Shown: positions 1,970 to 62,748 of the stretch, piece after piece
Layout: each line of letters begins with the position of its first letter
How positions within the stretch are numbered: position 1 is the stretch's first letter
From: Candidatus Moraniibacteriota bacterium
GTDB taxonomy: Bacteria > Patescibacteriota > Minisyncoccia > Moranbacterales > UBA2206
Direction of reading: 5' to 3'
DNA: 64,000 bases
Assembly: GCA_003483065.1 (NCBI GenBank)
Contig: DMWY01000007.1
Location: 10,452-74,451, forward strand
Notes under the pieces: model-generated
Databases searched by the model: none
The model's input: the letters and a program-made list of their open reading frames with translations, nothing else
Told to the model about the DNA's origin: nothing
Translations under genes and position numbers: made by a program

Positions 1970-2767
1970 TTAAATTAATCTTTTTTTGGCTATTGCTTTT
2001 AGTTCTTCATTGAATTCCGAAATAGCTTTATCCATAATTGGATCGAATTTTTTGTAAATTTTTTTTTCTTTGACAATATTTCCCGCTTCTAGGAGAGTGT
2101 CGAATGTTCCGGCATCCAACCACGCACCAGAGAAAGTACTCACTTCCAACTCTCCTTTTTCCAGATAAAAATTATGCAGTGATGTTATTTCTTTTTCTCC
2201 TCTCTCGGATGGAATCACGTTCTTAGCTGCATCTGATACTCGATTGTCAAAAATATAAAGTCCTGGAATAGCATAATCACTTAACCATTCACTTGGTTTT
2301 TCTATAATTTTCACCGCCTTATTATTCTCATCAAATTTTACCACGCCATAACGCTCCGGATCAGGAACTTTTTTAGCAAAAATTTTTCCGCCAGACTTGA
2401 AATTCTTAATATCCTCAGAAAAATCATCTTCGAAAATATTGTCCCCTAAAATCATCGTCACATTGCCATTGTCAATGAAATCTTCGCCTAAAACAAAAGC
2501 CTCCGTCAAGCCTTTGGGCAATTTTTGCACCTTAAAATCAATGCGAATGTCATATTTTTCAAAAATTGAACCCAAAAGATTCAAATATTGCCCACTGTGT
2601 TCCGGCGCTACAATAATCAAAATGTCTTTTATACCAGCCTTAATGAGCGTATTAAGTGGATAAAAAATCATCTGCCTGTCATAGACCGGCAAAAGTTGCT
2701 TCGAAGTTGTCGCGGTGAGCGGAAAAAGCCTTGTCGCTGTTCCACCCGAGAGAATAATGCCTTTCAT
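1970..2767 (-). CDS. rmlA: Glucose-1-phosphate thymidylyltransferase RmlA
   Basis: MKGIILSGGTATRLFPLTATTSKQLLPVYDRQMIFYPL matches the RmlA N-terminal signature. The internal ATG at 2765-2767 is the likely start; the longer ORF to 2842 adds a non-conserved leader. Confidence 0.85.
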   Translation of the reverse strand: MKGIILSGGTATRLFPLTATTSKQLLPVYDRQMIFYPLNTLIKAGIKDILIIVAPEHSGQYLNLLGSIFEKYDIRIDFKVQKLPKGLTEAFVLGEDFIDNGNVTMILGDNIFEDDFSEDIKNFKSGGKIFAKKVPDPERYGVVKFDENNKAVKIIEKPSEWLSDYAIPGLYIFDNRVSDAAKNVIPSERGEKEITSLHNFYLEKGELEVSTFSGAWLDAGTFDTLLEAGNIVKEKKIYKKFDPIMDKAISEFNEELKAIAKKRLI

Positions 2768-2838
2768 AAATTTATTTTCATCTATAAAACAAATACTTTT
2801 AGGAAGCGGGGAGATGGAAATATCCATCTCCCCTAATT

Positions 2839-3057
2839 TCAATGTGCAAAAGAGGCCATAATCCCATCAAGATCTTTTTCAATTTCTTGCCACTCAGTCT
2901 GTGTTAAATTTATAAGCCACGGGTCATCCTGATAACGAATAAAAGGTATAATCCTTTTTTCTCGTTGTTCATGGATGTATTGAGGCGTTACATCTTCTGA
3001 TTTAACACCATCTTCTATGGCAATAAGGTCCTTGAATAGTTTTTTCAGATTCGACAT
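2839..3057 (-). CDS. Hypothetical small protein (72 aa)
   Basis: Intact ORF between glyA and rmlA on the same strand; no recognisable motif. Confidence 0.3.
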   Translation of the reverse strand: MSNLKKLFKDLIAIEDGVKSEDVTPQYIHEQREKRIIPFIRYQDDPWLINLTQTEWQEIEKDLDGIMASFAH

Positions 3058-3148
3058 GTGTTTCCTCCTTATATGTTTTTATTATTTTAGTTGATCTGAA
3101 CCTCCTAGAAATATTTGTTTTAAAGAGCAATACGTTAAACGACTTAAA

Positions 3149-4393
3149 TTATTTTAAATTCTTGTAAAGTGGAAACTTTCTGCAAAGCTTAATAACTTCA
3201 TTATGAATTTTCTTCAATTCTTTTTTATCATCCTTATTTTCAATCGCATCCTTTATCCATTTGGAAATAATTTTTATCTCTTTTTCTTTCATTCCACGAG
3301 TTGTGATGGCTGGCACGCCAATGCGAATCCCGCTTGGGTCCATCGGATTTCTTGTGTCGTTGGGAATCATATTTTTGTTAAGTGAAATTCCAATTTCGTC
3401 CAAGGCTTCTTGGGCCTCTTTTCCGCTGACGCCTTTTGAACCCCAAACATCCACTAGCACCATATGATTGTCTGTTCCACCAAAACAAATGTCAAATCCA
3501 TATTTTTTCAGCTCTTGTTCCAAAATTTTGGCATTTTTTATAGTTTGCACAGCATATTTTTTGAAAGCTGGTTTCAAAGCTTCACCAAATGCCACCGCTT
3601 TGGCCGCAATATTGTTTTCATGTGGTCCACCTTGAAAACCAGGAAAAGTGGCTTTGTCAATTGCCTTGGCGAATTTTTCTTTGCACATAATCATTCCACC
3701 ACGCGGACCACGCAAAGTTTTGTGAGTTGTGGTGGTGACGATGTCAAAATATGGCACGGGATTTGGAAGGGCCTTGCCTGCAATTAGCCCAGCAATATGA
3801 GCAATGTCAAACATCGTGATCGCCCCCACTTTTTTGGCAATAGCTTGAAATTTTTTATAATCCAATTGTCTTGTATAAGCTGAAAATCCTGCCAAAATCA
3901 TTTTCGGTTTTTCTTTGACTGCCATTTTTTCCAATTCTCTATAGTCTATTTTTCCAAATGCATCTGTTTTATATCGCACAAAATTATATATCTTCGCGCT
4001 AAGCGTCACAGGATGACCATGCGTCAAATGTCCGCCGTGCGCCAAATCCATCCCCAAAACCTTGTCTCCTGGCTTCAAAACTGCGCTATAGGCGATCATA
4101 TTAGCCGGTGCGCCGGAAAGTGGCTGAACATTCACATGCTCCGCGCCAAAAAGCTTTTTTGCTCGAGCAATTGCCAAGCTTTCCACCACATCAGTATATT
4201 CTTGCCCGCCATAATAACGATGCCCCGGATAACCTTCACTATATTTATTAGTAAAAACAGATCCCAGCGCTTCAAGCACCGCCTCTGAAACATAATTTTC
4301 ACTGGCAATCATTTCCATACCCTCTTGTTGACGCTTCAATTCGCCCATCGTTGCTCTATAAACTTCCTTGTCTTGGTTTTTGATATTTTTCAT
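3149..4393 (-). CDS. glyA: Serine hydroxymethyltransferase
   Basis: MIASENYVSEAVLEALGSVFTNKYSEGYPGHRYYGG...HLTHGHP are classic SHMT motifs; 414 aa. Confidence 0.95.
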   Translation of the reverse strand: MKNIKNQDKEVYRATMGELKRQQEGMEMIASENYVSEAVLEALGSVFTNKYSEGYPGHRYYGGQEYTDVVESLAIARAKKLFGAEHVNVQPLSGAPANMIAYSAVLKPGDKVLGMDLAHGGHLTHGHPVTLSAKIYNFVRYKTDAFGKIDYRELEKMAVKEKPKMILAGFSAYTRQLDYKKFQAIAKKVGAITMFDIAHIAGLIAGKALPNPVPYFDIVTTTTHKTLRGPRGGMIMCKEKFAKAIDKATFPGFQGGPHENNIAAKAVAFGEALKPAFKKYAVQTIKNAKILEQELKKYGFDICFGGTDNHMVLVDVWGSKGVSGKEAQEALDEIGISLNKNMIPNDTRNPMDPSGIRIGVPAITTRGMKEKEIKIISKWIKDAIENKDDKKELKKIHNEVIKLCRKFPLYKNLK

Positions 4394-9680: not shown

Positions 9681-9695
9681 AATAAGCCCTTTTTC

Positions 9696-9774
9696 ATTCG
9701 CATGGGCGCGTTCGCCCGCCTCGACTCGCGGAGACCGCTTGTCGACGCGAGGCGGGTAGCGCGCTATTCGCATG
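9696..9774. repeat. GC-rich palindromic insert (61 nt) flanked by the 9-bp direct repeat ATTCGCATG
   Basis: ATTCGCATG at 9696-9704 and 9766-9774 brackets a near-perfect hairpin (gcgcg..cccgcctcg..tcgac..gcgg aga ccgc..gtcga..cgaggcggg..gcgcgc). It is strongly GC-rich in an AT-rich genome. Confidence 0.4.
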
Positions 9775-9786
9775 CTTATTTTCAAA

Positions 9787-9816
9787 GCAAAAAATCGCGA
9801 TTTCGCGATTTTTTGC
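9787..9816. terminator. Bidirectional intrinsic terminator (perfect 30-nt palindrome)
   Basis: gcaaaaaatcgcga tt tcgcgattttttgc: A-tract, stem, T-tract on both strands; downstream of prmC. Confidence 0.65.
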
Positions 9817-9863
9817 TTTATCAATAATACCTAAGGCATTAAAGAACAATTATTTGAGAAAGA

Positions 9864-9959
9864 CTATTTCTTTTTCTTTTTTGTTGCTTTCTTTTTTGCT
9901 ACTTTCTTTGTAGCTTTTTTCTTTGTAGCTTTTTTAGCTGCTTTCTTTTTTGCTGCCAT
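9864..9959 (-). CDS. Tiny Lys/Ala-rich basic protein (31 aa, MAAKKKAAKKATKKKATKKVAKKKATKKKKK)
   Basis: Minus-strand ORF with the strong SD-like AGGAAGGTGA 9 nt upstream of ATG (9957-9959) and stop TAG (9864-9866). Composition resembles histone-H1-like / AKKA-repeat nucleoid proteins. Below the ORF-track size cutoff. Confidence 0.35.
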   Translation of the reverse strand: MAAKKKAAKKATKKKATKKVAKKKATKKKKK

Positions 9960-10354
9960 GTTGATTTCACCTTCCTTTCTATTTTTATTTTTTTAACTTT
10001 AAAATAATTTACATTTTTATTTTCGACCTTTTGTTTTCAAGAAATTTATTTTTCCGAATGTTATCGGATGAAAATATTTTTCTTAACTTAATTATACAAC
10101 ATATATTTTTTTTTGCAATAGAAAAAAGTTATCCACAGGTGATTTTTTAAAAAAATTTTAAAATTTTTTTAAAAAATAAAATTTCAAATCACAAAAACCA
10201 AATAACAAGTAATTTTTTAAAAATTATAATTTTATAAATTCGAAACTTATTTTTTGATTTTTAAATTTTAGATATTTTAAATTTATTTGGAAGTTGCGAT
10301 TTGAACTTTGTAATTTATGCCTTTACTACGCCCTGAATAAGCCATTTTGTCTAG

Positions 10355-10383
10355 TTGACGCCCGAGGCAGATAAAGTTAAAAT
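10355..10383 (+). promoter_or_regulatory. Sigma70-like promoter TTGACG-N17-TAAAAT
   Basis: -35 at 10355-10360, -10 at 10378-10383, about 70 nt upstream of the 10456 gene. Confidence 0.45.
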
Positions 10384-10455
10384 TTAATAGAAGAACAGCT
10401 TCAACGAAAGCACGTTAAAAACAATAAATATTAAATAGAAAGGAAGGTGAAAATT

Positions 10456-30075: not shown

Positions 30076-30426
30076 TTATTTCTTCTTCATGGATTGCGTG
30101 CCACGGCGAACCATTTCCTCGGCGTAGGCATCGTAGCCTTTTTCTTTGATCATATCAATTGAAGCTTGGCGGTCGGAGCCAAAAAGAAAGCCAAAAAGTT
30201 TAGAAAAAATATTGTTGAATTTTTTGCATTCCGACGCACTTGCATAAACAGTGCAATCCGCGCAACTGACTTTGCCATTTTCTATGCAACATTTTCGAAC
30301 CGTGCACCAACTAGCCTTTTCGTTTTTCTGACACCCCAGACATTTTCCCTTTTTATATTTCCCACACTCCCCGCAATAGAGCCCGCAATAAGCAATTAAA
30401 TTTTTATCGACATTTTTTTGTTCCAT
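30076..30426 (-). CDS. DUF3795 family Cys-rich protein
   Basis: CGLYCGECGKYKKGKCLGCQ...WCTVRKCC...CADC shows the DUF3795 cysteine pattern. The internal Met at 30424-30426 is the likely start. Confidence 0.6.
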   Translation of the reverse strand: MEQKNVDKNLIAYCGLYCGECGKYKKGKCLGCQKNEKASWCTVRKCCIENGKVSCADCTVYASASECKKFNNIFSKLFGFLFGSDRQASIDMIKEKGYDAYAEEMVRRGTQSMKKK

Positions 30427-30525
30427 AGTTTTTATTAAACTTTTAAAATATTTTCCATAAATAGTTGTATTATTGTTAGGTATAGTAAATATTGACATTT
30501 TGTCAAGTGTTGCTATACTCAAATT

Positions 30526-30620
30526 AGCAACGAGATAGTCGGGACAAATTCCAGTGGAAAAGTTTCAAGCAATTGAAACTACCGATATATCTGACCTCGG
30601 CGGAGAGCCGGGGTTTTATG
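30526..30620 (+). ncRNA. Candidate small RNA (~95 nt) between a plus-strand promoter and an intrinsic terminator
   Basis: TTGACA (30492-30497), 16 nt, TATACT (30514-30519); then a 7-bp stem cctcggc/gccgggg (30595-30613) followed by TTTTATGTTTTT; no ORF between them. Class unknown. Confidence 0.25.
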
Positions 30621-31161
30621 TTTTTATAACCAATAATCCTTTTTTCTCCAATTTGGCATAATATTTAAATATTCTATCAATATTCTTTTTATCAAAATAA
30701 GATCGAGTGAGCCCAGCTACCATATCAGCCAATCTCACGCCAGCGCATTGTTCATCATTAACAGATCTAAGCTTTTTGGTTGTTATATTTTTTTCTCTTA
30801 AAATTTTCTTTATTTTTCTTTCATACCATTTTGGTTTTTTTCCATCTATAAAAATATTTTTGATATTCTTTTCTACTATCATATGCGTCAGACATTCTTC
30901 AAGTTTAATTTGTGGATTAACAGGATTTTTCACAACTGCCACTTTTGCTGAAAAATCAAGCTTCAGGGTTTCTTTTATAAATCCCTCTTTAATTTTCCAA
31001 GGAGTATTTTTCCAATGGAATTTATCAAGCCTTAAATTACTTTCAATTTCTTGTATCTTTTTTTCTACATTTTTATAATTTCTAACTTCTATATAAACCA
31101 AAGCGAATGTTGAATTATCTACTATCTTGTGAATACCTGATTCATCGATAAAAATCATCAT
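30616..31161 (-). CDS. DUF3800 domain protein
   Basis: Starts MMIFIDESG, with DEQCAGVRLADMVAG further in, as in DUF3800. Confidence 0.65.
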   Translation of the reverse strand: MMIFIDESGIHKIVDNSTFALVYIEVRNYKNVEKKIQEIESNLRLDKFHWKNTPWKIKEGFIKETLKLDFSAKVAVVKNPVNPQIKLEECLTHMIVEKNIKNIFIDGKKPKWYERKIKKILREKNITTKKLRSVNDEQCAGVRLADMVAGLTRSYFDKKNIDRIFKYYAKLEKKGLLVIKT

Positions 31162-31353: not shown

Positions 31354-31623
31354 TTATGATTTATTGAAAAAAATAAATATTTTTTCCAGTATAGTTACTT
31401 TGGTATAAACATACCTTACAACGATATCGCATACCTCCTCAGAAAAATTACGTTTAGCTATATCCTTGCGTAATTTTTCAGAATTAACCGGAGGATTATC
31501 AATCATATACTCAATTTTTTCCACATTTTGAAGTAAAAATGGTATGAGTTCTGGATTGATATTTATTTTTTTAAATTGCCTCACTAGATAATCACGATAT
31601 CTAGCTTTCTTTTTCGCTTTCAT
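31354..31623 (-). CDS. Hypothetical protein (89 aa)
   Basis: Intact ORF with its own downstream hairpin terminator (31295-31345 on the minus strand); no family recognised. Confidence 0.35.
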   Translation of the reverse strand: MKAKKKARYRDYLVRQFKKININPELIPFLLQNVEKIEYMIDNPPVNSEKLRKDIAKRNFSEEVCDIVVRYVYTKVTILEKIFIFFNKS

Positions 31624-55521: not shown

Positions 55522-56385
55522 TTAATTAGCCATTTGGCAAGAAAAGAGATTTTTGCAAATATATTCAATGTCGCCTTTTTCATCTGTTCGCAAAATATTT
55601 ATTTTTTTGGCTCTGAGACGCTCCAAAAGTTCTCCTGCCGGATGACCATAACTGTTGTTTTTGCCGACAGAAATAATCGCATCAAATGGACTAACTTTAC
55701 TCAAAAACTCTTGACTGGTGGCATTTTTTGAACCATGATGGGAAACTTTCAGTACTTTTGAGATTAAGTCAAATTTATCGATCAATAAAGCGCTTTCTTT
55801 TTCTAGCGGAAAATCCCCAGTAAAAAGAAAAGAATTTTGGCCATATATTAGTTTTGCCACGATACTATCAGAATTTGTATCTTTTGGTCCGCCAGCTGGC
55901 GGATCCAAAATCAAACCAGGATAGATAATTTCTAGATTAGCATCTTTGATTTTTATATTCATCCCCTCTTTGCCTTTCAATCTTTCGATATTTTTATTTT
56001 CAATTATTTCTAAATAATTTTTATAAACTTGAGAATCACTCTCGGCGCTATTATCAATCACTTTGCCAATCTTATAATTTTTCATCACATCAATGAGTCC
56101 ACCAATATGATCTTGATCTGGATGAGTCGCGATAACTATCTCAATTTTTCTGTCCCAAAATGGAATATATTTTCCCAATTTTTCCATTTCCTTTTGTCCG
56201 CTCGGCCCACCGTCAATCAAAATCTGATTTTGCCCTTGTGAAATCATGATGGCATCGCCCTGTCCAACATTGAAAAAAATAATCTTGAGTTTTTGATTTT
56301 GAGAATGCCAAATAACACCAGCTAAAATTAAGCTGATTATTAGTAGAAATATTAGGGAAAAATAAATGTGTTTTTTGTGAAACAT
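55522..56385 (-). CDS. MBL-fold metallo-hydrolase (ComEC C-terminal-domain-like, stand-alone)
   Basis: N-terminal TM; IATHPDQDHIGG (HxHxDH-type motif) and later His/Asp ligands; the type of domain normally fused to the ComEC C-terminus. Confidence 0.7.
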   Translation of the reverse strand: MFHKKHIYFSLIFLLIISLILAGVIWHSQNQKLKIIFFNVGQGDAIMISQGQNQILIDGGPSGQKEMEKLGKYIPFWDRKIEIVIATHPDQDHIGGLIDVMKNYKIGKVIDNSAESDSQVYKNYLEIIENKNIERLKGKEGMNIKIKDANLEIIYPGLILDPPAGGPKDTNSDSIVAKLIYGQNSFLFTGDFPLEKESALLIDKFDLISKVLKVSHHGSKNATSQEFLSKVSPFDAIISVGKNNSYGHPAGELLERLRAKKINILRTDEKGDIEYICKNLFSCQMAN

Positions 56386-56510
56386 TCTTTTTTCTCAAAA
56401 AATAAATTACTCCTGCTAAAATTATATATTACAAAAGCACTTTTCACCACTGAGAATAAATGAAAAGAGACTGACTGTCATTTTGACCAGTCAGTCTCTT
56501 TTGTCGAACG

Positions 56511-57860
56511 TTATCGATTTAGGAGGTTCCAAATCTCCCCAAATTTGAGAAGATATACACGAGTTTCCTCGGGTAATGCTCCTCCTGAATTTATTGATTT
56601 GGCGGCCCGCGGAGAACCACAGTTGTAAGCAGCTGCCAAGTATTTCCCCATATCTTCGGGGGAATTCCTTAACTTCTCCCGATATTTTGGGCTAAGATAG
56701 GCAAGATCACTATCAAAAAGAAGGAGCGACGCTTTTGCTCCATTGAAGTGATTTTCCATCCCCTCAATAAAATCAGGAGTCAAACGAGCTTCCTGATAGA
56801 TCCCCTTTAAGTTCCTATAGGTTTTGGGGATAAATTGAAAAAGTCCTCTTGCTTTCGATTTGGAAATTGAATAGCGATAAGCAAGATTCCCATTAGCCCC
56901 AACGATCGTTAGAACTTCATTCGTCAGACTTTCTGAAGATTCCCCTCGTAGAAATCTTGCGGGATCAATATGCTCGATAATGCTTAAGCATAAGGACACC
57001 TCCGTTGGGACAACCTCAGAAACATTCTCACCTGAAAAAGCGTGTGACCTAACCCCAAGAGAGGCCAGTTCATTCTTCGCAGCTAGAATTTTATCCTGAA
57101 GATATTCTAGGCCGCGTTGACGGATTGCTGGGATATCTAACTCTTTGGTGTAAGGAGTATAAACAACCTCCTTATACTTTCCATCAAATTGAACAACCCG
57201 ACGAAGACCAAGGACTATAAATCCCTCCGGGTGAGTCACTTCAAATTCAGTGTTCACTCCGTTAGGATTTCCCCTATCTATTCCAAATCCTTTGACTAGG
57301 CCCTTACCCTTAGCGGGAATACGAATGAGTTTGATAATACGCTCATTCACATTTTCCACTGCCAGGAGAACATTGTAGTCTTTTAAGTATGGAACTGTCC
57401 AGGTCTGTTTGCATTTACCCTTTACTGTAACGATCTTAAATTTCCCCTTTCTCTTTTTTATTGGTACTTTTTTTTGAACCTTACAGTCTTTAAATTTGTA
57501 AAGTTCCTTTCGCCCAAGAGTAAAGCCAGCCTCATTTCCCTCCAGGAGTAACCGGGCTTTGTCAATATCAGCCAAAATGTCAAAATCAACATTTAGCTGA
57601 CCCCTGCACGGCAAACTCGCGACAGAATCAAGGCCACATACCCTTTCTACTTTCACTTCTTTTTTTTCTTTGGATATTTCGCCTCCTGAGAAAATCCAAT
57701 TAAAGTTTTGTATGAAAATAAACATACTCAAAACAAGAATGACCCAATGTTCCCAGTGGGCCCTCCTGATAATCGGCCATGAAAATTTCCACAATTTATT
57801 AAGGATCGACACTAATATTGCCAGTTTCTTGTTTTCCATAATCCCCCCCCTTTTTATCAT
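56511..57860 (-). CDS. Putative lytic transglycosylase (SLT-domain-like) protein
   Basis: N-terminal TM; the C-terminal half has ES...ANGNLAYRYSISKSKARGLFQFIPKTY, matching the SLT catalytic motif (E-S...GLMQ.mp.T). Confidence 0.5.
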   Translation of the reverse strand: MIKRGGIMENKKLAILVSILNKLWKFSWPIIRRAHWEHWVILVLSMFIFIQNFNWIFSGGEISKEKKEVKVERVCGLDSVASLPCRGQLNVDFDILADIDKARLLLEGNEAGFTLGRKELYKFKDCKVQKKVPIKKRKGKFKIVTVKGKCKQTWTVPYLKDYNVLLAVENVNERIIKLIRIPAKGKGLVKGFGIDRGNPNGVNTEFEVTHPEGFIVLGLRRVVQFDGKYKEVVYTPYTKELDIPAIRQRGLEYLQDKILAAKNELASLGVRSHAFSGENVSEVVPTEVSLCLSIIEHIDPARFLRGESSESLTNEVLTIVGANGNLAYRYSISKSKARGLFQFIPKTYRNLKGIYQEARLTPDFIEGMENHFNGAKASLLLFDSDLAYLSPKYREKLRNSPEDMGKYLAAAYNCGSPRAAKSINSGGALPEETRVYLLKFGEIWNLLNR

Positions 57861-57968
57861 TCAGATTGATTGTTTGGTTTTTGCATGAAATATGAAAATA
57901 GATAGGCCTACTATTTAAGCACGTATTATCCTTTTTGTCAAATATTTTTACCTCTTCCAAAATATGCA

Positions 57969-59432
57969 TTAATTTTTAATTTTCTTTTTTAAAATTACAA
58001 CAATTCCTACTAAAATTATATACCAAATCACCACTCCCCACCACGCAATTTTCATTTCAATTGAAGCATATTTCAAACTAGCCAGATAATTTATAGTGAC
58101 TGTTTCATATTTCAAAGGTAGATAAGTCAGCCAAGAAAAAATGATTGCGATTGGTTCGAAAACAAAACTAAACATAATTGCCACAAAACCCAAAAGCATT
58201 GTGAGTGGGATAATAGGCAAAATTAGGATATTCGCCAAAAGTGAAATAAGCGAAAGTGTTCCAAAATTGAACATAATAATTGGCAAAACAAAAATCTGCG
58301 CGGAAAGTGAAAGGAAAAGAATTTCTGCAACTGAAGAGACGAGGCAGTGCCTCGTCTCTACAAGATGCAAAAAATAATTTTCGAAAAATGGATAGAGATA
58401 AACTATGCCGATTGTCGCTAGAAAAGAAAGTTGAAAGCCGATGTCCCAGCGAAGAAGGAGCGGATTAGCCAAGAGCATAACGCAAGCAGAAAACAAGATA
58501 GCATTCTGAGTATTCCCTAATCGACCATTTTTCATGGCCCAAATGAGAAGCACGCCCATCAGCCCCGCCCGCACAGCCGAAGCACTAAGTCCCGTGAGAA
58601 TCACAAAAAGAATTATCCCAGTCACTGCAAACCAAAAAGCTTGCCGTCGCCACAGTCCCAAAAATATTCCCAGAAGCATCAAATATTCAGCAATAATTGT
58701 CACATTATATCCAGACACCGCCACAACGTGCGTCATCCCCGTGCGTGAAAAATTATCTTTCACCTCTTTTGACAATTGGTTGCTTCCACCCAAAAGAAGA
58801 CCCGAGAGAAGTCCGGACTCTGGTGCGGGAATTAATTGATTTATCTTTTCATTGAAGTTATTTTTAATTGATATCAAAACTGCCAGAAATCTGTTGCCAT
58901 TATTTTTTTCTAACTTTTCTATTTTCGGATTTTTGCATTCATAAAAAATCCCGTCTTTCGCCAAATACATTTGATAGTCAAAGTTTTCATCAAAATTTTT
59001 CGGCCTTTCAAGAACGCAATTTATTTTTAGCCTATCGCCATAATTGTATTTTTCATAAATACTAGCGTTAAGCAAAAATTTTTCCCTCTTGTTGTCAGCC
59101 GAAACAAGAATAAGTTGCTGAATTTTTTCTTTCATCACTGGCTCTTTGGAAATCATAACTATGCCCGAAAAATTCTGCTTGTCTGCATTCAGATTTTTTA
59201 TTTTTTCCAATCTCAAATTTGCGAGCCAAAAACCACAAACAAAAAATCCCAAAGCAAAACCAAAAAGAACGACTTTTTTATTTTCCCAAAATACTGCCAC
59301 AATAGAAAGCGTGAAAACAAAAGAAAAATAAAATAAACTAGCACTTAATATCTGCGGATAATAAAAAGAAGCAATTGCTATGCCTCCGATAAAAGATAAG
59401 GAAAAAATGAAAAATATACGGTATTTGGTCAT
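57969..59432 (-). CDS. comEC: DNA internalisation competence protein ComEC/Rec2 (channel domain only)
   Basis: DUF4131-like N-terminus and the multi-TM competence domain; lacks the C-terminal MBL domain. Confidence 0.8.
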   Translation of the reverse strand: MTKYRIFFIFSLSFIGGIAIASFYYPQILSASLFYFSFVFTLSIVAVFWENKKVVLFGFALGFFVCGFWLANLRLEKIKNLNADKQNFSGIVMISKEPVMKEKIQQLILVSADNKREKFLLNASIYEKYNYGDRLKINCVLERPKNFDENFDYQMYLAKDGIFYECKNPKIEKLEKNNGNRFLAVLISIKNNFNEKINQLIPAPESGLLSGLLLGGSNQLSKEVKDNFSRTGMTHVVAVSGYNVTIIAEYLMLLGIFLGLWRRQAFWFAVTGIILFVILTGLSASAVRAGLMGVLLIWAMKNGRLGNTQNAILFSACVMLLANPLLLRWDIGFQLSFLATIGIVYLYPFFENYFLHLVETRHCLVSSVAEILFLSLSAQIFVLPIIMFNFGTLSLISLLANILILPIIPLTMLLGFVAIMFSFVFEPIAIIFSWLTYLPLKYETVTINYLASLKYASIEMKIAWWGVVIWYIILVGIVVILKKKIKN

Positions 59433-59480
59433 GCTTGACTTTAAGTATTTTTTATGTTAGGATATTCGGTTCATTAGCAA

Positions 59481-59890
59481 TTAAGCTATTGAATAAAAAA
59501 GGAGGTGCGTTATGAACTTTCATAGCGGTTTTGCCTAATTTTAGATGGGATAGTTCTCCCACTATTCCATTAAATCAAAAAATGACAAAAAATAAAACAA
59601 ACCCGCCTACGTCTAGTTGAGTAGGAACGACAAACTGTCATCTTTGTAGTATTCCCCTTGGAGCAAGAAGGTGCTTATGACAGTTTTAGCGAGGCGGTTG
59701 TATGAATGGGCAAATCATACAATAGGGAGTTCGCCGTGAGGATATCCTTCTTTACGCAGTATCCTCTTTACGGTTTACAAGCTTAGTAATAATATTTTGG
59801 GAAAGATAGAAAGTTATCTTATCTTACTACTAAGACAGTGGAATCTACCCCGAGTGCATATTGACTCCCAAAGCAATATGCACTTTTTTT
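59481..59890 (+). ncRNA. Candidate structured RNA (~400 nt) with an 8-codon leader ORF and a strong intrinsic terminator; class unknown
   Basis: Promoter-like TTGACT-N17-TAGGAT (59446-59474). RBS AAGGAGGTG followed by ATG AAC TTT CAT AGC GGT TTT GCC TAA (59512-59538, MNFHSGFA). Several hairpins: 10-bp aaactgtcat/atgacagttt, ttgtatga/tcatacaa, gaggata/tatcctc and gggatagt/actattcc. Terminator gtgcatattg..caatatgcac plus a T7 run (59854-59890). No plus-strand gene follows. Confidence 0.3.
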
Positions 59891-59904
59891 ATTGTAAAAT
59901 TTTT

Positions 59905-60123
59905 TCAAATTATTTCCACCAGTTTTTTTCGCGTAGATTTGCCACCGATAATCGACACTAGACTTTTTGGCACATCAAAATGTTCTGCCAAAATTTCAAT
60001 CAGCATTTTGTTGGCCTCGCCATCAACTGGTGGTGCAGTTATTTTAACTTTATATTCCCCCTCTGAAATTTTAACTACCTCATTTTTGGAAGAACGAGGA
60101 ATGACTTTAACATAAATTCTCAT
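59905..60123 (-). CDS. DUF167 (YggU) family protein
   Basis: MRIYVKVIPRSSKNEVV...KVKITAPPVDGEANKMLIEILAEHFDVPKSLVSIIGGKSTRKKLVEI matches the YggU/DUF167 consensus. Confidence 0.8.
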   Translation of the reverse strand: MRIYVKVIPRSSKNEVVKISEGEYKVKITAPPVDGEANKMLIEILAEHFDVPKSLVSIIGGKSTRKKLVEII

Positions 60124-60175: not shown

Positions 60176-61048
60176 CTAGGCTGTATTGATTCTTTGCTTG
60201 ATTGAGTTGAAAATTCTAGAAATTATATTAACCACAAAGAGAAGCATTAAAAATGCATTGGCATAAATAAAAATATTTCGCACAATCAAATTTTTCATAT
60301 CCGTTCCAAGTTGAAGTGCATGGAGAATCACAAAAATCCACAAAACTAAATTGAAAAAATGGATGAGTCGCCAGACACGAAAATTGATAAATTTTCGAAG
60401 ATATGAGCTGACTATTAATATCAACATCAAATAGAGAGAGATGATTCCCATTGCAAGATAAATTGGTTCTACGCCAACTTTAGTTGCGCTCTCTGAAAGA
60501 GGAAAAAATGGCACGAAAATATTAGCCAAATTAAAGGCGAGAAATTTGTCAAAAAGCAAACTCACTCCATGAAGCAAAGCAAACAGCAGAGCTTGCACTG
60601 AAATCCAACCGTGAATGTCCAAAGAATAAATGGGTGAAATTATTTTTCGAAGTAGTGGGTTTCGAATAGCAATTCCAAAAAATATCGAAAGATACAAAAG
60701 AAAAAATCCAATTAGCGCGCTGGCACGCGTGAGATACCACCCCCAAGGAACTTCGATTTCTGCTAAATTTGCGCTGTAGACCTCTGCGATTGATGGTGAA
60801 GCACTGTCTAGCGGGTCATTTCCAGTCATAACTTCTGCTCCATCTATTATCCCGTCCTTATCAGTGTCGGGATTTTTTGGCTCAGTAGTATAAATTTGTT
60901 TTTCCCCTTCATCGGTGAGCCCGTCCAGGTCGCTGTCCGTAATAACATCGTTTCCGTAGTCAACTTTTTTTTCTTCTGCTTTCGAAAAATTAAAATTAAA
61001 TATGAAAAAAAATAAAATTATTGCTAATATAAATATTTGTTTTTTCAT
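60176..61048 (-). CDS. Ferric-reductase-like transmembrane (heme-binding) protein with N-terminal secreted Ca-binding-type Asp repeats
   Basis: Signal peptide; DSDLDGLTDEGE and DTDKDGIIDG repeats; six TM helices with paired His (ALLHGVS, ILHALQLG), as in FRD/YedZ-like heme b domains. Confidence 0.5.
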   Translation of the reverse strand: MKKQIFILAIILFFFIFNFNFSKAEEKKVDYGNDVITDSDLDGLTDEGEKQIYTTEPKNPDTDKDGIIDGAEVMTGNDPLDSASPSIAEVYSANLAEIEVPWGWYLTRASALIGFFLLYLSIFFGIAIRNPLLRKIISPIYSLDIHGWISVQALLFALLHGVSLLFDKFLAFNLANIFVPFFPLSESATKVGVEPIYLAMGIISLYLMLILIVSSYLRKFINFRVWRLIHFFNLVLWIFVILHALQLGTDMKNLIVRNIFIYANAFLMLLFVVNIISRIFNSIKQRINTA

Positions 61049-61159
61049 TTTTTATAGTTTACTAAAGTACGAATCTAGCTAAATTACCTGCCTCGCCGGC
61101 AGGCGGGCGAATAAAGATAATAAGGATTAGTAATTTCGTTTAATTCGTATTTTCGTAAA

Positions 61160-62080
61160 TCAAATTATTTGTTTCATTTTTTCTGATAAATATACATTCC
61201 CTCGATAGTCCAAAAAAATTGCTGGGATTTTTTTCTGATTAGCATATTCCATTCCTCTTTTTTGCCCCATGAGATATAGCACCTTAGCTAAAACATCGGC
61301 TCTTTCGCAAATTTCAGCTTTCACCGTCACTGATTTCAAATCAAAAGAAAAATCATATGGACGCAAAGGATTAATTAAGTGATGATATTTTTCGCCACTA
61401 GTTTCCCATTTTTTTCTGGTTATACCCGAAGTCGCCACAGCTGAATTTTCTAAATTTAGAATAATCTTATCCTGCGAAATCCCTTCGACCTCTATCCCCC
61501 AACTTTCTTTACTTTCATTTTTCCCTTTGGCAAAAATGTCTCCGCCAGAATCAACCAAGAAATTTTGCCAGCCGGAGTTTTCGAGATACTGCGAAATCAA
61601 ATCAGTGATATAACCCTTGGCGATTCCGGAAAAATCCATTCTTTGTCCAAAAAAAACTTGGTCGTCTTTTATTTTCAAGTCATCCGTTAATTTATTTTTT
61701 GGAAAAATTTTGTCTTTTTCAATTTCCTTTTGGGAAAAAGTGTTAATCCTAAAATCTTTTTCATAGCCTACATTTTCCAAGATTTCCAGTATCCGCGGGT
61801 CGAAATAACCTCCACTTTCCTTGTAGTATTCCAATGATTTTTGTGCTAAAAACAGGATGTCTTCCGAGGCAGTTTTGAAAATTCCAAGATTTTCATTTAA
61901 TTTTGAAAGTTCACTTTTTTCAATAAACCGACTGAAAATTTTTTCTTTGTCTTGATATATTTTTTTTATCTCTTCCAGAATATCCTTAGCATCTTCAATA
62001 TTTTTTTCCTTATCAATAACCAAAAATATTTTTATCTCCGTGCCAAGCGCCCTAAATTCCTGCGAAAAAATTGAATTCAT
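61160..62080 (-). CDS. apbE: FAD:protein FMN transferase (ApbE family)
   Basis: FRALGTEIKIFLV (ApbE xxMGT motif region), DSGGD, and C-terminal ApbE blocks. Confidence 0.8.
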   Translation of the reverse strand: MNSIFSQEFRALGTEIKIFLVIDKEKNIEDAKDILEEIKKIYQDKEKIFSRFIEKSELSKLNENLGIFKTASEDILFLAQKSLEYYKESGGYFDPRILEILENVGYEKDFRINTFSQKEIEKDKIFPKNKLTDDLKIKDDQVFFGQRMDFSGIAKGYITDLISQYLENSGWQNFLVDSGGDIFAKGKNESKESWGIEVEGISQDKIILNLENSAVATSGITRKKWETSGEKYHHLINPLRPYDFSFDLKSVTVKAEICERADVLAKVLYLMGQKRGMEYANQKKIPAIFLDYRGNVYLSEKMKQII

Positions 62081-62419
62081 TTATTCGAATTTATCCACTA
62101 TGCCGTTTTTGTTATTGTCTTCTACGATATAAATTTCTGAAATTGCCGGATGAGGATCAGTTTCATCCAAAATCCCATCACCGTCACTATCCTTATGGAT
62201 TGTAGTTTTTGTCGTGGTTTCAACTTTAGTGGAAACTGAAGGCTGAGTAATAATAGTTTTTGTTGTAGTTTGTGGTTTGTAATCCTCATCATCTTCTTCG
62301 TCTCCTTCCTCATTCCTTTCCTCAGTTTCATTATCGTCATCCGCTTTGACAAAATAAAAATTTGTCGCAAAAAGCACAGGGATCAGGAGTATAAAAATAA
62401 ATTTCAAAAATTTTTTCAT
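62081..62419 (-). CDS. Hypothetical secreted acidic protein with DxDGDG Ca-binding-like motif
   Basis: Signal peptide, acidic stretch, Thr-rich segment, DSDGDGILDETDP. Confidence 0.45.
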   Translation of the reverse strand: MKKFLKFIFILLIPVLFATNFYFVKADDDNETEERNEEGDEEDDEDYKPQTTTKTIITQPSVSTKVETTTKTTIHKDSDGDGILDETDPHPAISEIYIVEDNNKNGIVDKFE

Positions 62420-62427
62420 AATATTTT

Positions 62428-62748
62428 TTATGATGTTTTGGTTTTTGTAGTAGTCTTTTTGGCTGGCGATGGAGTGCTAGTCGTCGTAGTTTTGGCCGTC
62501 ACATTATCCACTTGCTTTGTTTGTTTGGGAGAATTGTTTTGACTATTTAGCTTTGTCTCTCTATCCTGAAAAATTGCATTTTGTGTTTCTAAAATTTTTG
62601 GATCAATTGAGCCAGTGCTCAAAAGCGCTTCTTTTTGTGCTAGCAATCTATCATTGTCCTTGTTTTTAATTATCAAAAAACCAATGACGAGCAAAAGCGC
62701 ATTGATGATAAAAACTAATATGCCGGTTGATTTACTTTTCTCTACCAT
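62428..62748 (-). CDS. Hypothetical membrane-anchored Thr/Lys-rich protein
   Basis: N-terminal TM, coiled segment, C-terminal TTTTSTPSPAKKTTTKTKTS low-complexity tail. Confidence 0.45.
   Translation of the reverse strand: MVEKSKSTGILVFIINALLLVIGFLIIKNKDNDRLLAQKEALLSTGSIDPKILETQNAIFQDRETKLNSQNNSPKQTKQVDNVTAKTTTTSTPSPAKKTTTKTKTS

Follow-up and report, generated by a model that had tools for sequence, protein, structure and literature searches.

Introduction

The described systems closest to the locus reported here are small RNA (sRNA) islands of the enterobacterial type and orphan cassettes in variable islets. The locus shares with them a sigma-70-type promoter and an intrinsic terminator of its own, a site between conserved genes, confinement to one lineage with clean absence in the sister lineages, and a lack of coding capacity. 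However, with approximately 420 nt the locus exceeds the usual length of an sRNA, a mini-ORF with a perfect Shine-Dalgarno (SD) sequence is present, and the host is an uncultured bacterium of the candidate phyla radiation (CPR). Staphylococcus RNAIII and Rsa-type sRNAs, which carry UCCC loops, are similar in having a long transcript of many hairpins, a small SD-led ORF within it, and C-rich (UCCC/CUCCC) loops that could pair with SD sequences; this comparison does not imply homology. Unlike these RNAs, the present element has an ORF of 8 codons, a marginal motif enrichment and no conservation, and no sequence or Rfam similarity to them was found.

Two further classes invite comparison. Leader-peptide attenuators, such as those of erm, cat and the amino-acid operon leaders, also have an SD-led 8-codon ORF followed immediately by hairpins, but in the present case no regulated gene lies downstream. 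Type I toxin mRNAs of the hok-like kind resemble the element in an SD and AUG sequestered in the 5' fold of a structured mRNA of about 400 nt. However, the peptide encoded here has 8 residues and is not hydrophobic, no promoter for an antisense RNA was identified, and no family match was obtained. The last likeness is to a small-ORF cassette of a related lineage (locus L006), which is alike in site, orientation, identical -35 box, 5' hairpin, A-rich tract, SD and ATG, and differs in its cargo, a 64-aa orphan ORF, and in its terminator.

Results and Discussion

Organization of the locus

The window is the whole stretch of DNA that was analysed (64,000 nt). Its host clade is Candidatus Moranbacteria (CPR/Patescibacteria), and the nearest ComEC relatives are Moranbacteria metagenome-assembled genomes. 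The features of the locus are as follows.

57969-59432, minus strand: comEC-type gene with Pfam Competence and DUF4131 domains, one flank
59430-59432, minus strand: comEC ATG
59433-59904, plus strand: whole insertion between the comEC ATG and the DUF167 stop, from comparison with relatives
59435-59463, plus strand: sigma-70-type promoter, -35 TTGACT (59435-59440), 17-nt spacer, TG-extended -10 TAGGAT (59458-59463)
59470-59493, plus strand: 5'-terminal hairpin, loop AAUUAA, stem of 8 bp containing a single U.U mismatch
59499-59507, plus strand: perfect SD AAGGAGGTG, from sequence
59512-59538, plus strand: 8-codon ORF MNFHSGFA*, from sequence
59545-59570, plus strand: predicted 10-bp hairpin with one G.U pair, loop UCUCCC
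59571-59601, plus strand: A-rich linker with tandem CAAAAAATGA/CAAAAAATAA
59603-59697, plus strand: branched domain closed by CCGCCU/AGGCGG, enclosing the 10-bp stem of the next line
59632-59641/59677-59686, plus strand: 10-bp perfect stem AAACTGTCAT/ATGACAGTTT, loop of 35 nt
59698-59722, plus strand: 8-bp perfect hairpin TTGTATGA/TCATACAA
59734-59773, plus strand: hairpin CCGU-GAGGAUA ... UAUCCUC-ACGG (GAGGATA/TATCCTC at 59738-59766)
59782-59834, plus strand: long imperfect hairpin CTTAGTA.../...TACTAAG, 14-nt arms, 86% complementary
59853-59890, plus strand: intrinsic terminator, 11-bp perfect stem AGTGCATATTG/CAATATGCACT (59853-59884) with a 10-nt loop containing CUCCC, and T7
59905-59907, minus strand: DUF167 stop
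59905-60123, minus strand: DUF167 gene, from the domain search, the other flank

The first-pass annotation had placed the locus between two minus-strand genes, comEC and the DUF167 gene, and the domain searches (Competence/DUF4131 at 57969-59432, DUF167 at 59905-60123) agreed with it. The promoter-like TTGACT-N17-TAGGAT, the mini-ORF MNFHSGFA at 59512-59538, the hairpins, including the 10-bp stem with its 35-nt loop, and the intrinsic terminator that it had described were all found; in addition, the -10 box has a TG extension, and the terminator stem is 11 bp, perfect and followed by T7. In the case of the SD, described as near-consensus and 7 nt before the ATG, the sequence proved to be perfect, and the spacing was the one detail of the description that had to be corrected: the ATG at 59512 is 4 nt away from the 9-mer, or 6 nt if counted from GGAGG. 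The 5'-terminal hairpin is placed at the predicted transcript start. The T run occupies 59884-59890, with its first T doubling as the last stem base, and stops 14 nt before the DUF167 stop.

Contig LBSI01000002.1 (GCA_000991855.1) was 100% identical to the window over the 6.2 kb compared. Ten contigs from independent samples carried copies of the element, all of them clonal and 100% identical to the window. Two low-coverage contigs (L048, 2324-2545; L049, 1-249 and 2216-2437) carry the element and diverge abruptly 40 nt into comEC, where the sequence becomes unrelated; their divergent tails are probably assembly chimeras and not a second genomic context.

Several observations concern the surroundings of the locus. 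In this clade comEC is split into a Competence/DUF4131 gene of approximately 487 aa and a Lactamase_B gene of approximately 288 aa; the two-gene form is found in the window (55522-56385 and 57969-59432) and likewise in L052, L058 and L062. Between the Competence-domain gene and the metallo-beta-lactamase-domain gene there is an ORF of 449 aa (56511-57860, minus strand, within 56429-57980), whose match to SLT (lytic transglycosylase) is weak. Since these two genes are adjacent in L001-L006, the ORF represents a second insertion in the same operon; comEC is also split in relatives without it. On the other side, 60176-62748 holds Ferric_reduct, ApbE and two small serine/threonine/acidic-rich genes between a radical-SAM gene and DUF167. 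The radical-SAM gene, nrdG-like as judged from its position after NrdD, stands immediately before DUF167 in several relatives (compared in L052/L058/L062). Elsewhere in the window, a full-length DUF3800-II RNA (Rfam RF02961, 75 bits) was located at 30527-30596 on the plus strand, in the gap between the ORFs 30076-30522 and 30616-31161. The largest non-coding gap of the window (9681-10446, 766 nt, G+C 0.28) had no Rfam match and holds a 31-codon Lys/Ala-rich ORF (MAAKKKAAKKATKKK..., 9864-9959, minus strand).

Insertion at the DUF167-comEC junction

In the closest relatives (L001, L002, L003 and L005; 74-92% ComEC identity), DUF167 and comEC abut, the comEC ATG following the DUF167 stop by only 9-12 nt. 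Moreover, alignments between these relatives and the window are interrupted at either end of the block. Accordingly, the approximately 460 nt from 59433 to ~59900 are an insertion, and it is strain-specific. The same short junction was seen in L069, L075, L076 and L079, which were reached via DUF167 variants.

Across Moranbacteria the DUF167-comEC junction is a hypervariable islet with unrelated cargo in a number of lineages. Small genes occur there on either strand, those of L009, L010, L016, L068 and L080 being on the comEC strand. L012 has an ATPase-like gene, and L007, L017 and L020 have palindromic repeat elements. Other plus-orientation cassettes, with promoter-like and terminator-like sequences of their own, are present in L006, L017 and L052-57. 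Further loci reached via DUF167 variants added more cargo types and no copy of the element. Among the palindromic elements, a repeat of ~150 nt, GTCATTCTGAGCGAAGCGGAGCGGAGTCGA...TCCGCTCAGGATGAC, is common to the DUF167-comEC gaps of L017 and L020; the palindrome found there in L007 is another element, rich in G+C.

In L009, L010, L012 and L016-L020, a TATAAT box stands 6-7 nt before the comEC ATG (e.g. TGCTATAATATTTTC-ATG), an arrangement missing from the window and L006. As read from their position, these boxes suggest that comEC mRNAs may be leaderless in many Moranbacteria.

The shared 5' module and the search for homologues

One cassette at the same site shares sequence with the window. 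L006 (JAKLIG010000001.1; also recovered as L058-L061) is 81% identical to it over 74 nt. Both have an identical -35 box and a nearly identical 5' hairpin (GTTCATTAGCAATTAAGCTA), and they also have the spacer, A-tract, SD and ATG in common; the -10 box of L006 reads TATTAT. In L006 the module leads into a 64-codon ORF, which begins MKYLKLG, and a different terminator. The 64-aa protein had no homologue among 5.8 billion sequences. After the ATG, the similarity between the window and L006 is not significant, as 129 of 500 shuffles scored equally well; the motif TAAAACARACCCGCC, which both contain, was likewise set aside as not significant. Since the similarity is confined to the 5' module, the conserved unit is an expression module, and the cargo of the window has no counterpart. 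With respect to a pseudogene, the 5' module is homologous to that of the L006 cassette, and the cargo similarity is not significant.

Strong SDs are rare in the window. AGGAGG occurs at a proper start-codon distance in ~2-3 of roughly 70 genes, and the clear AGGAGG and ATG cases are real small ORFs of 72 and 89 codons (2839-3057 and 31354-31623). This supports an origin of the module as the translation start of a small protein.

No homologue of the element was found in 26 species-level syntenic loci and the further contigs fetched. A covariance model of the window core, run against 306 kb of the syntenic relatives' DNA from 36 sources, found only itself, and with filters off it found nothing in L017 and L052. 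In blastn searches of phage and plasmid collections no match was obtained. Exact 20-22-mers were absent from viral contigs, a search by which diverged copies could be missed; the scans of whole collections used exact patterns only, so that distant copies elsewhere could be missed as well. Neither the 64-kb window nor the loci held a second copy, and no terminal inverted repeats were present, as would be looked for in a MITE or IS remnant.

The insert of L017 was considered as a homologue because it shares TTTTTATGTTAGRATAT, GGAGGTG and CCGCCTAC with the window, and was rejected, as neither nhmmer similarity nor a covariance-model match was found. In a metagenome collection, the promoter and SD pattern occurred at 15 unrelated loci, most of them ahead of ordinary protein genes. 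Therefore, the resemblance between the window and L017 reflects a generic consensus.

Two further cassettes at the junction have non-coding-looking cargo of similar size and orientation (L017, fold z -2.4; L052, fold z -4.5), with no similarity to the window or to each other. The L017 cassette (3332-3750, minus strand of the locus) has the layout of the window, namely, a TG-extended promoter, the SD GGGAGGTGG, an 11-codon TTG ORF and, ahead of a terminator, some 300 nt of non-coding DNA, in a sequence unrelated to that of the window. The L052-L057 cassette (2723-3106, minus strand of the loci, 384 nt) occupies the same site and orientation in a close relative (GCA_000990805.1 / RIFOXYA12_FULL_35_19). 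A long-range stem of 12+6 bp, GCUGCUGGAGAA...UUCUCCAGCAGC, closes this cassette, and its fold z is -4.5; it may encode a 47-aa ORF that starts with GTG and is preceded by a GGGAGG SD, or it may be MITE-like. The RNase P-like words GCAAAC..CCGCC and GGAGGAAAGAUCC in L052 were dismissed, being in the wrong order and without a covariance-model match. Rfam searches of L017, L020, L013, L006, L012 and L052 (gathering threshold and E<=10) gave no match.

Predicted fold and strand

In the plus-strand fold, the SD is predicted to pair partly with UGCCU (59531-59535) at the end of the mini-ORF, and the mini-ORF AUG lies inside a predicted 8-bp hairpin (59508-59527). With the SD paired and the AUG inside a hairpin, translation of the mini-ORF would be hindered.

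Perfect stems of at least 7 bp are in excess over dinucleotide shuffles (5 observed vs 1.2 expected, P=0.015), and the summed stem length is also above that of the shuffles (P=0.001). For the whole locus, the plus-strand fold had a z of -4.4 and the minus-strand fold a z of -5.1. However, this signal is uneven. The 5' 127 nt reached z -4.6 and the terminator z -6.2, but the 256-nt core (59597-59852) reached only -1.5 to -1.7, with 14 of 200 shuffles folding equally well or better. The G+C of the core is 0.41-0.46, compared with 0.27-0.35 in the other intergenic gaps of the window. Raised G+C is typical of structured RNAs in AT-rich genomes. In the present case, DNA that is of foreign origin or was once coding would explain the rise just as well as a structured RNA.

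CUCCC occurs in two hairpin loops (59555-59560 and the terminator loop), against 0.28 expected per 421 nt, a comparison made post hoc. Its unpaired probability is 1.0 in the 59545-59570 hairpin and 0.79 in the terminator loop. By analogy, these loops may weakly recall the SD-targeting C-rich loops of Gram-positive sRNAs. GGA, counted by eye with a CsrB-like enrichment in view, occurs 8 times against about 5 expected.

As the terminator has no U tract on the minus strand, it should stop plus-strand transcripts only. Moreover, the G.U pairs in the hairpins 59508-59527 and 59545-59570 become A.C mismatches if the minus strand is considered. The plus strand is more likely to be the functional one, as judged from the promoter, SD and ATG that it carries and that are kept in L006, from the U tract present on this strand only, and from the G.U pairs.

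Known RNA families and coding capacity

Searching the whole window with Rfam 15 at the gathering threshold returned only the DUF3800-II RNA and one tRNA, both elsewhere. When the 631-nt locus was searched on both strands at E<=10, no family match was accepted; the best match was csRNA on the terminator (24 bits vs a threshold of 57 bits), and the best leader match was Phe_leader on the minus strand (15.6 bits vs 55 bits). No tmRNA was found in the window by ARAGORN or by the Rfam tmRNA models, and no tRNA was found at the locus. In the case of RNase P RNA, there was no match at E<=10, and no AAAGUCC-type element is present in the sequence. No group I or group II intron family was matched on either strand at E<=10. 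The absence of the element from close relatives cannot be reconciled with a housekeeping RNA at this position. The opinion of the first-pass annotation that the locus matches neither RNase P RNA, tmRNA nor SRP RNA domain IV was therefore upheld by the two-strand Rfam search and by ARAGORN.

Its further statement that no plus-strand protein gene follows was also confirmed. No coding potential was detected in any frame of the locus, and the six-frame translations matched no Pfam family. Six-frame tblastn against the relatives' DNA gave only a weak NrdD-like match (E~0.2-0.8), which is not significant. No other ORF in the locus is preceded by an SD, so that the only SD-led ORF that a type I toxin-antitoxin system could offer is the 8-aa MNFHSGFA. 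After the mini-ORF, where an attenuator would have its regulated gene, there is no plus-strand ORF before the terminator, which lies 14 nt from the convergent DUF167. As regards an independent sRNA transcription unit, a promoter and an intrinsic terminator of the element's own are present on the same strand, as read from the sequence.

Origin and possible function of the cassette

The first-pass annotation preferred a novel structured non-coding RNA and had named, beforehand, stems that are not conserved in relatives as evidence against it. This preference was not sustained. The stems are not conserved in relatives, of which the nearest do not have the element at all, and L006 carries other cargo behind the shared module. 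Moreover, the core covariance model had no match in 306 kb, and the core folds no better than shuffles. The element is most likely not a member of a conserved structured-RNA class. The alternative that the annotation had also raised, namely, a remnant or else a small-protein gene whose 3' region is long, gained support, since the module drives a 64-codon ORF in L006, and strong SDs are rare and otherwise stand before real small genes.

Accordingly, the element is best read as an orphan accessory cassette that is independently transcribed and non-coding, being either a truncated small-gene remnant or a very young RNA, without conserved structure; we assign this reading a probability of about 0.5. 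The plus-strand expression module would be complete: its promoter is strong, a hairpin would stabilise the 5' end, the SD is perfect, and an ATG follows. In the related lineage the same module would express the 64-aa orphan protein. In the window, the frame is just 8 codons long, and a predicted hairpin takes up the SD and the AUG. Transcription would then continue through some 310 nt that are orphan and non-coding, up to the terminator, which is expected to act in one direction. Given the short frame, the folded SD and AUG and the non-coding tail, the product would most likely be a non-coding transcript of ~420 nt, either the remnant of a decaying small-gene cassette or a very young RNA. Its effect would most plausibly be local, as the insertion parts comEC from DUF167, which abut in relatives, and the cassette would fire antisense to any read-through from DUF167 to comEC, or convergently across the junction. 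We infer the transcription of the element, and any regulatory effect, from these signals. Some observations count against this reading, namely, the excess of perfect hairpins (P=0.015), the core G+C and the two CUCCC loops; the intact promoter, SD and terminator argue against a long neutral decay.

These same observations are what a functional, lineage-specific regulatory sRNA with a stable transcript of ~420 nt would account for, and such an RNA is possible, though doubtful. Acting in trans, it could bind a few SD-led mRNAs through its exposed, anti-SD-like CUCCC loops; acting in cis, it could be an antisense or transcription-interference element on the read-through from DUF167 to comEC. Because the minus strand has no terminator U tract, operon read-through would overlap the sRNA completely. 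The promoter and terminator are complete, perfect stems are in excess, the core G+C is raised, both CUCCC motifs are predicted to be largely or wholly unpaired, and the G.U pairs in the two 5' hairpins favour the plus strand. However, the sRNA is not conserved, not even in the L006 lineage with its shared promoter module, and the closest relatives do not have it. The core is no more stable than shuffles, and the CUCCC enrichment (2 vs 0.28 expected) is weak and post hoc. A narrower form of this proposal, which we regard as unlikely, is a very young, strain-specific regulatory RNA of ~420 nt that was born when a small-protein cassette lost its ORF and that would exert control through the CUCCC loops and/or its antisense position. 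Its targets, on the same unlikely proposal, would be a few SD-led mRNAs or comEC.

It appears improbable that the locus is a leader-peptide attenuator, or that MNFHSGFA is a translated micro-peptide whose gene has a long, structured 3' UTR. The SD is perfect, the ATG is well spaced, the same module drives an ORF in L006, and GUUUUG behind the hairpin 59508-59527 gives it the look of a weak attenuator. However, the predicted fold sequesters both AUG and SD, the peptide is not conserved (L006 starts MKYLKLG), and an attenuator would have no downstream ORF to regulate, as the transcript stops 14 nt before a convergent gene. A functional minus strand, on which the block would be either a long element of comEC (intercistronic or 5' UTR) or a self-splicing intron at the DUF167-comEC junction, is very improbable. 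All of the expression signals (promoter, SD and terminator) are plus-oriented, with the promoter module conserved in L006, the G.U pairs of the two 5' hairpins turn into A.C mismatches, and no group I or group II intron was matched on either strand at E<=10, although the minus strand folds slightly better (z -5.1) and the insertion coincides exactly with an operon junction that is conserved in its empty form. Introns are, moreover, described as frequent in Patescibacteria (PMC13011429). A highly divergent member of the known large RNAs (RNase P RNA, tmRNA, 6S, OLE, ROOL, GOLLD or HEARO) would fit the length of about 400 nt and the several helices, and CPR RNAs are often divergent. However, with no match at E<=10 on 631 nt, no tmRNA by ARAGORN and no element in close relatives, it is already largely refuted and is the least credible of these proposals.

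Conclusions

As the evidence stands, the main value of this clonal, orphan insertion is cautionary. In an AT-rich genome, a promoter, an SD, a terminator and neat hairpins do not by themselves amount to a conserved structured RNA. If the transcript is functional, it would be among the very few sRNA candidates described for CPR bacteria, and it would show the turnover of accessory islets beside the DNA-uptake gene comEC. Should the unlikely case of a very young regulatory RNA be true, the locus would represent the transition from a protein gene to an RNA gene in a CPR bacterium.
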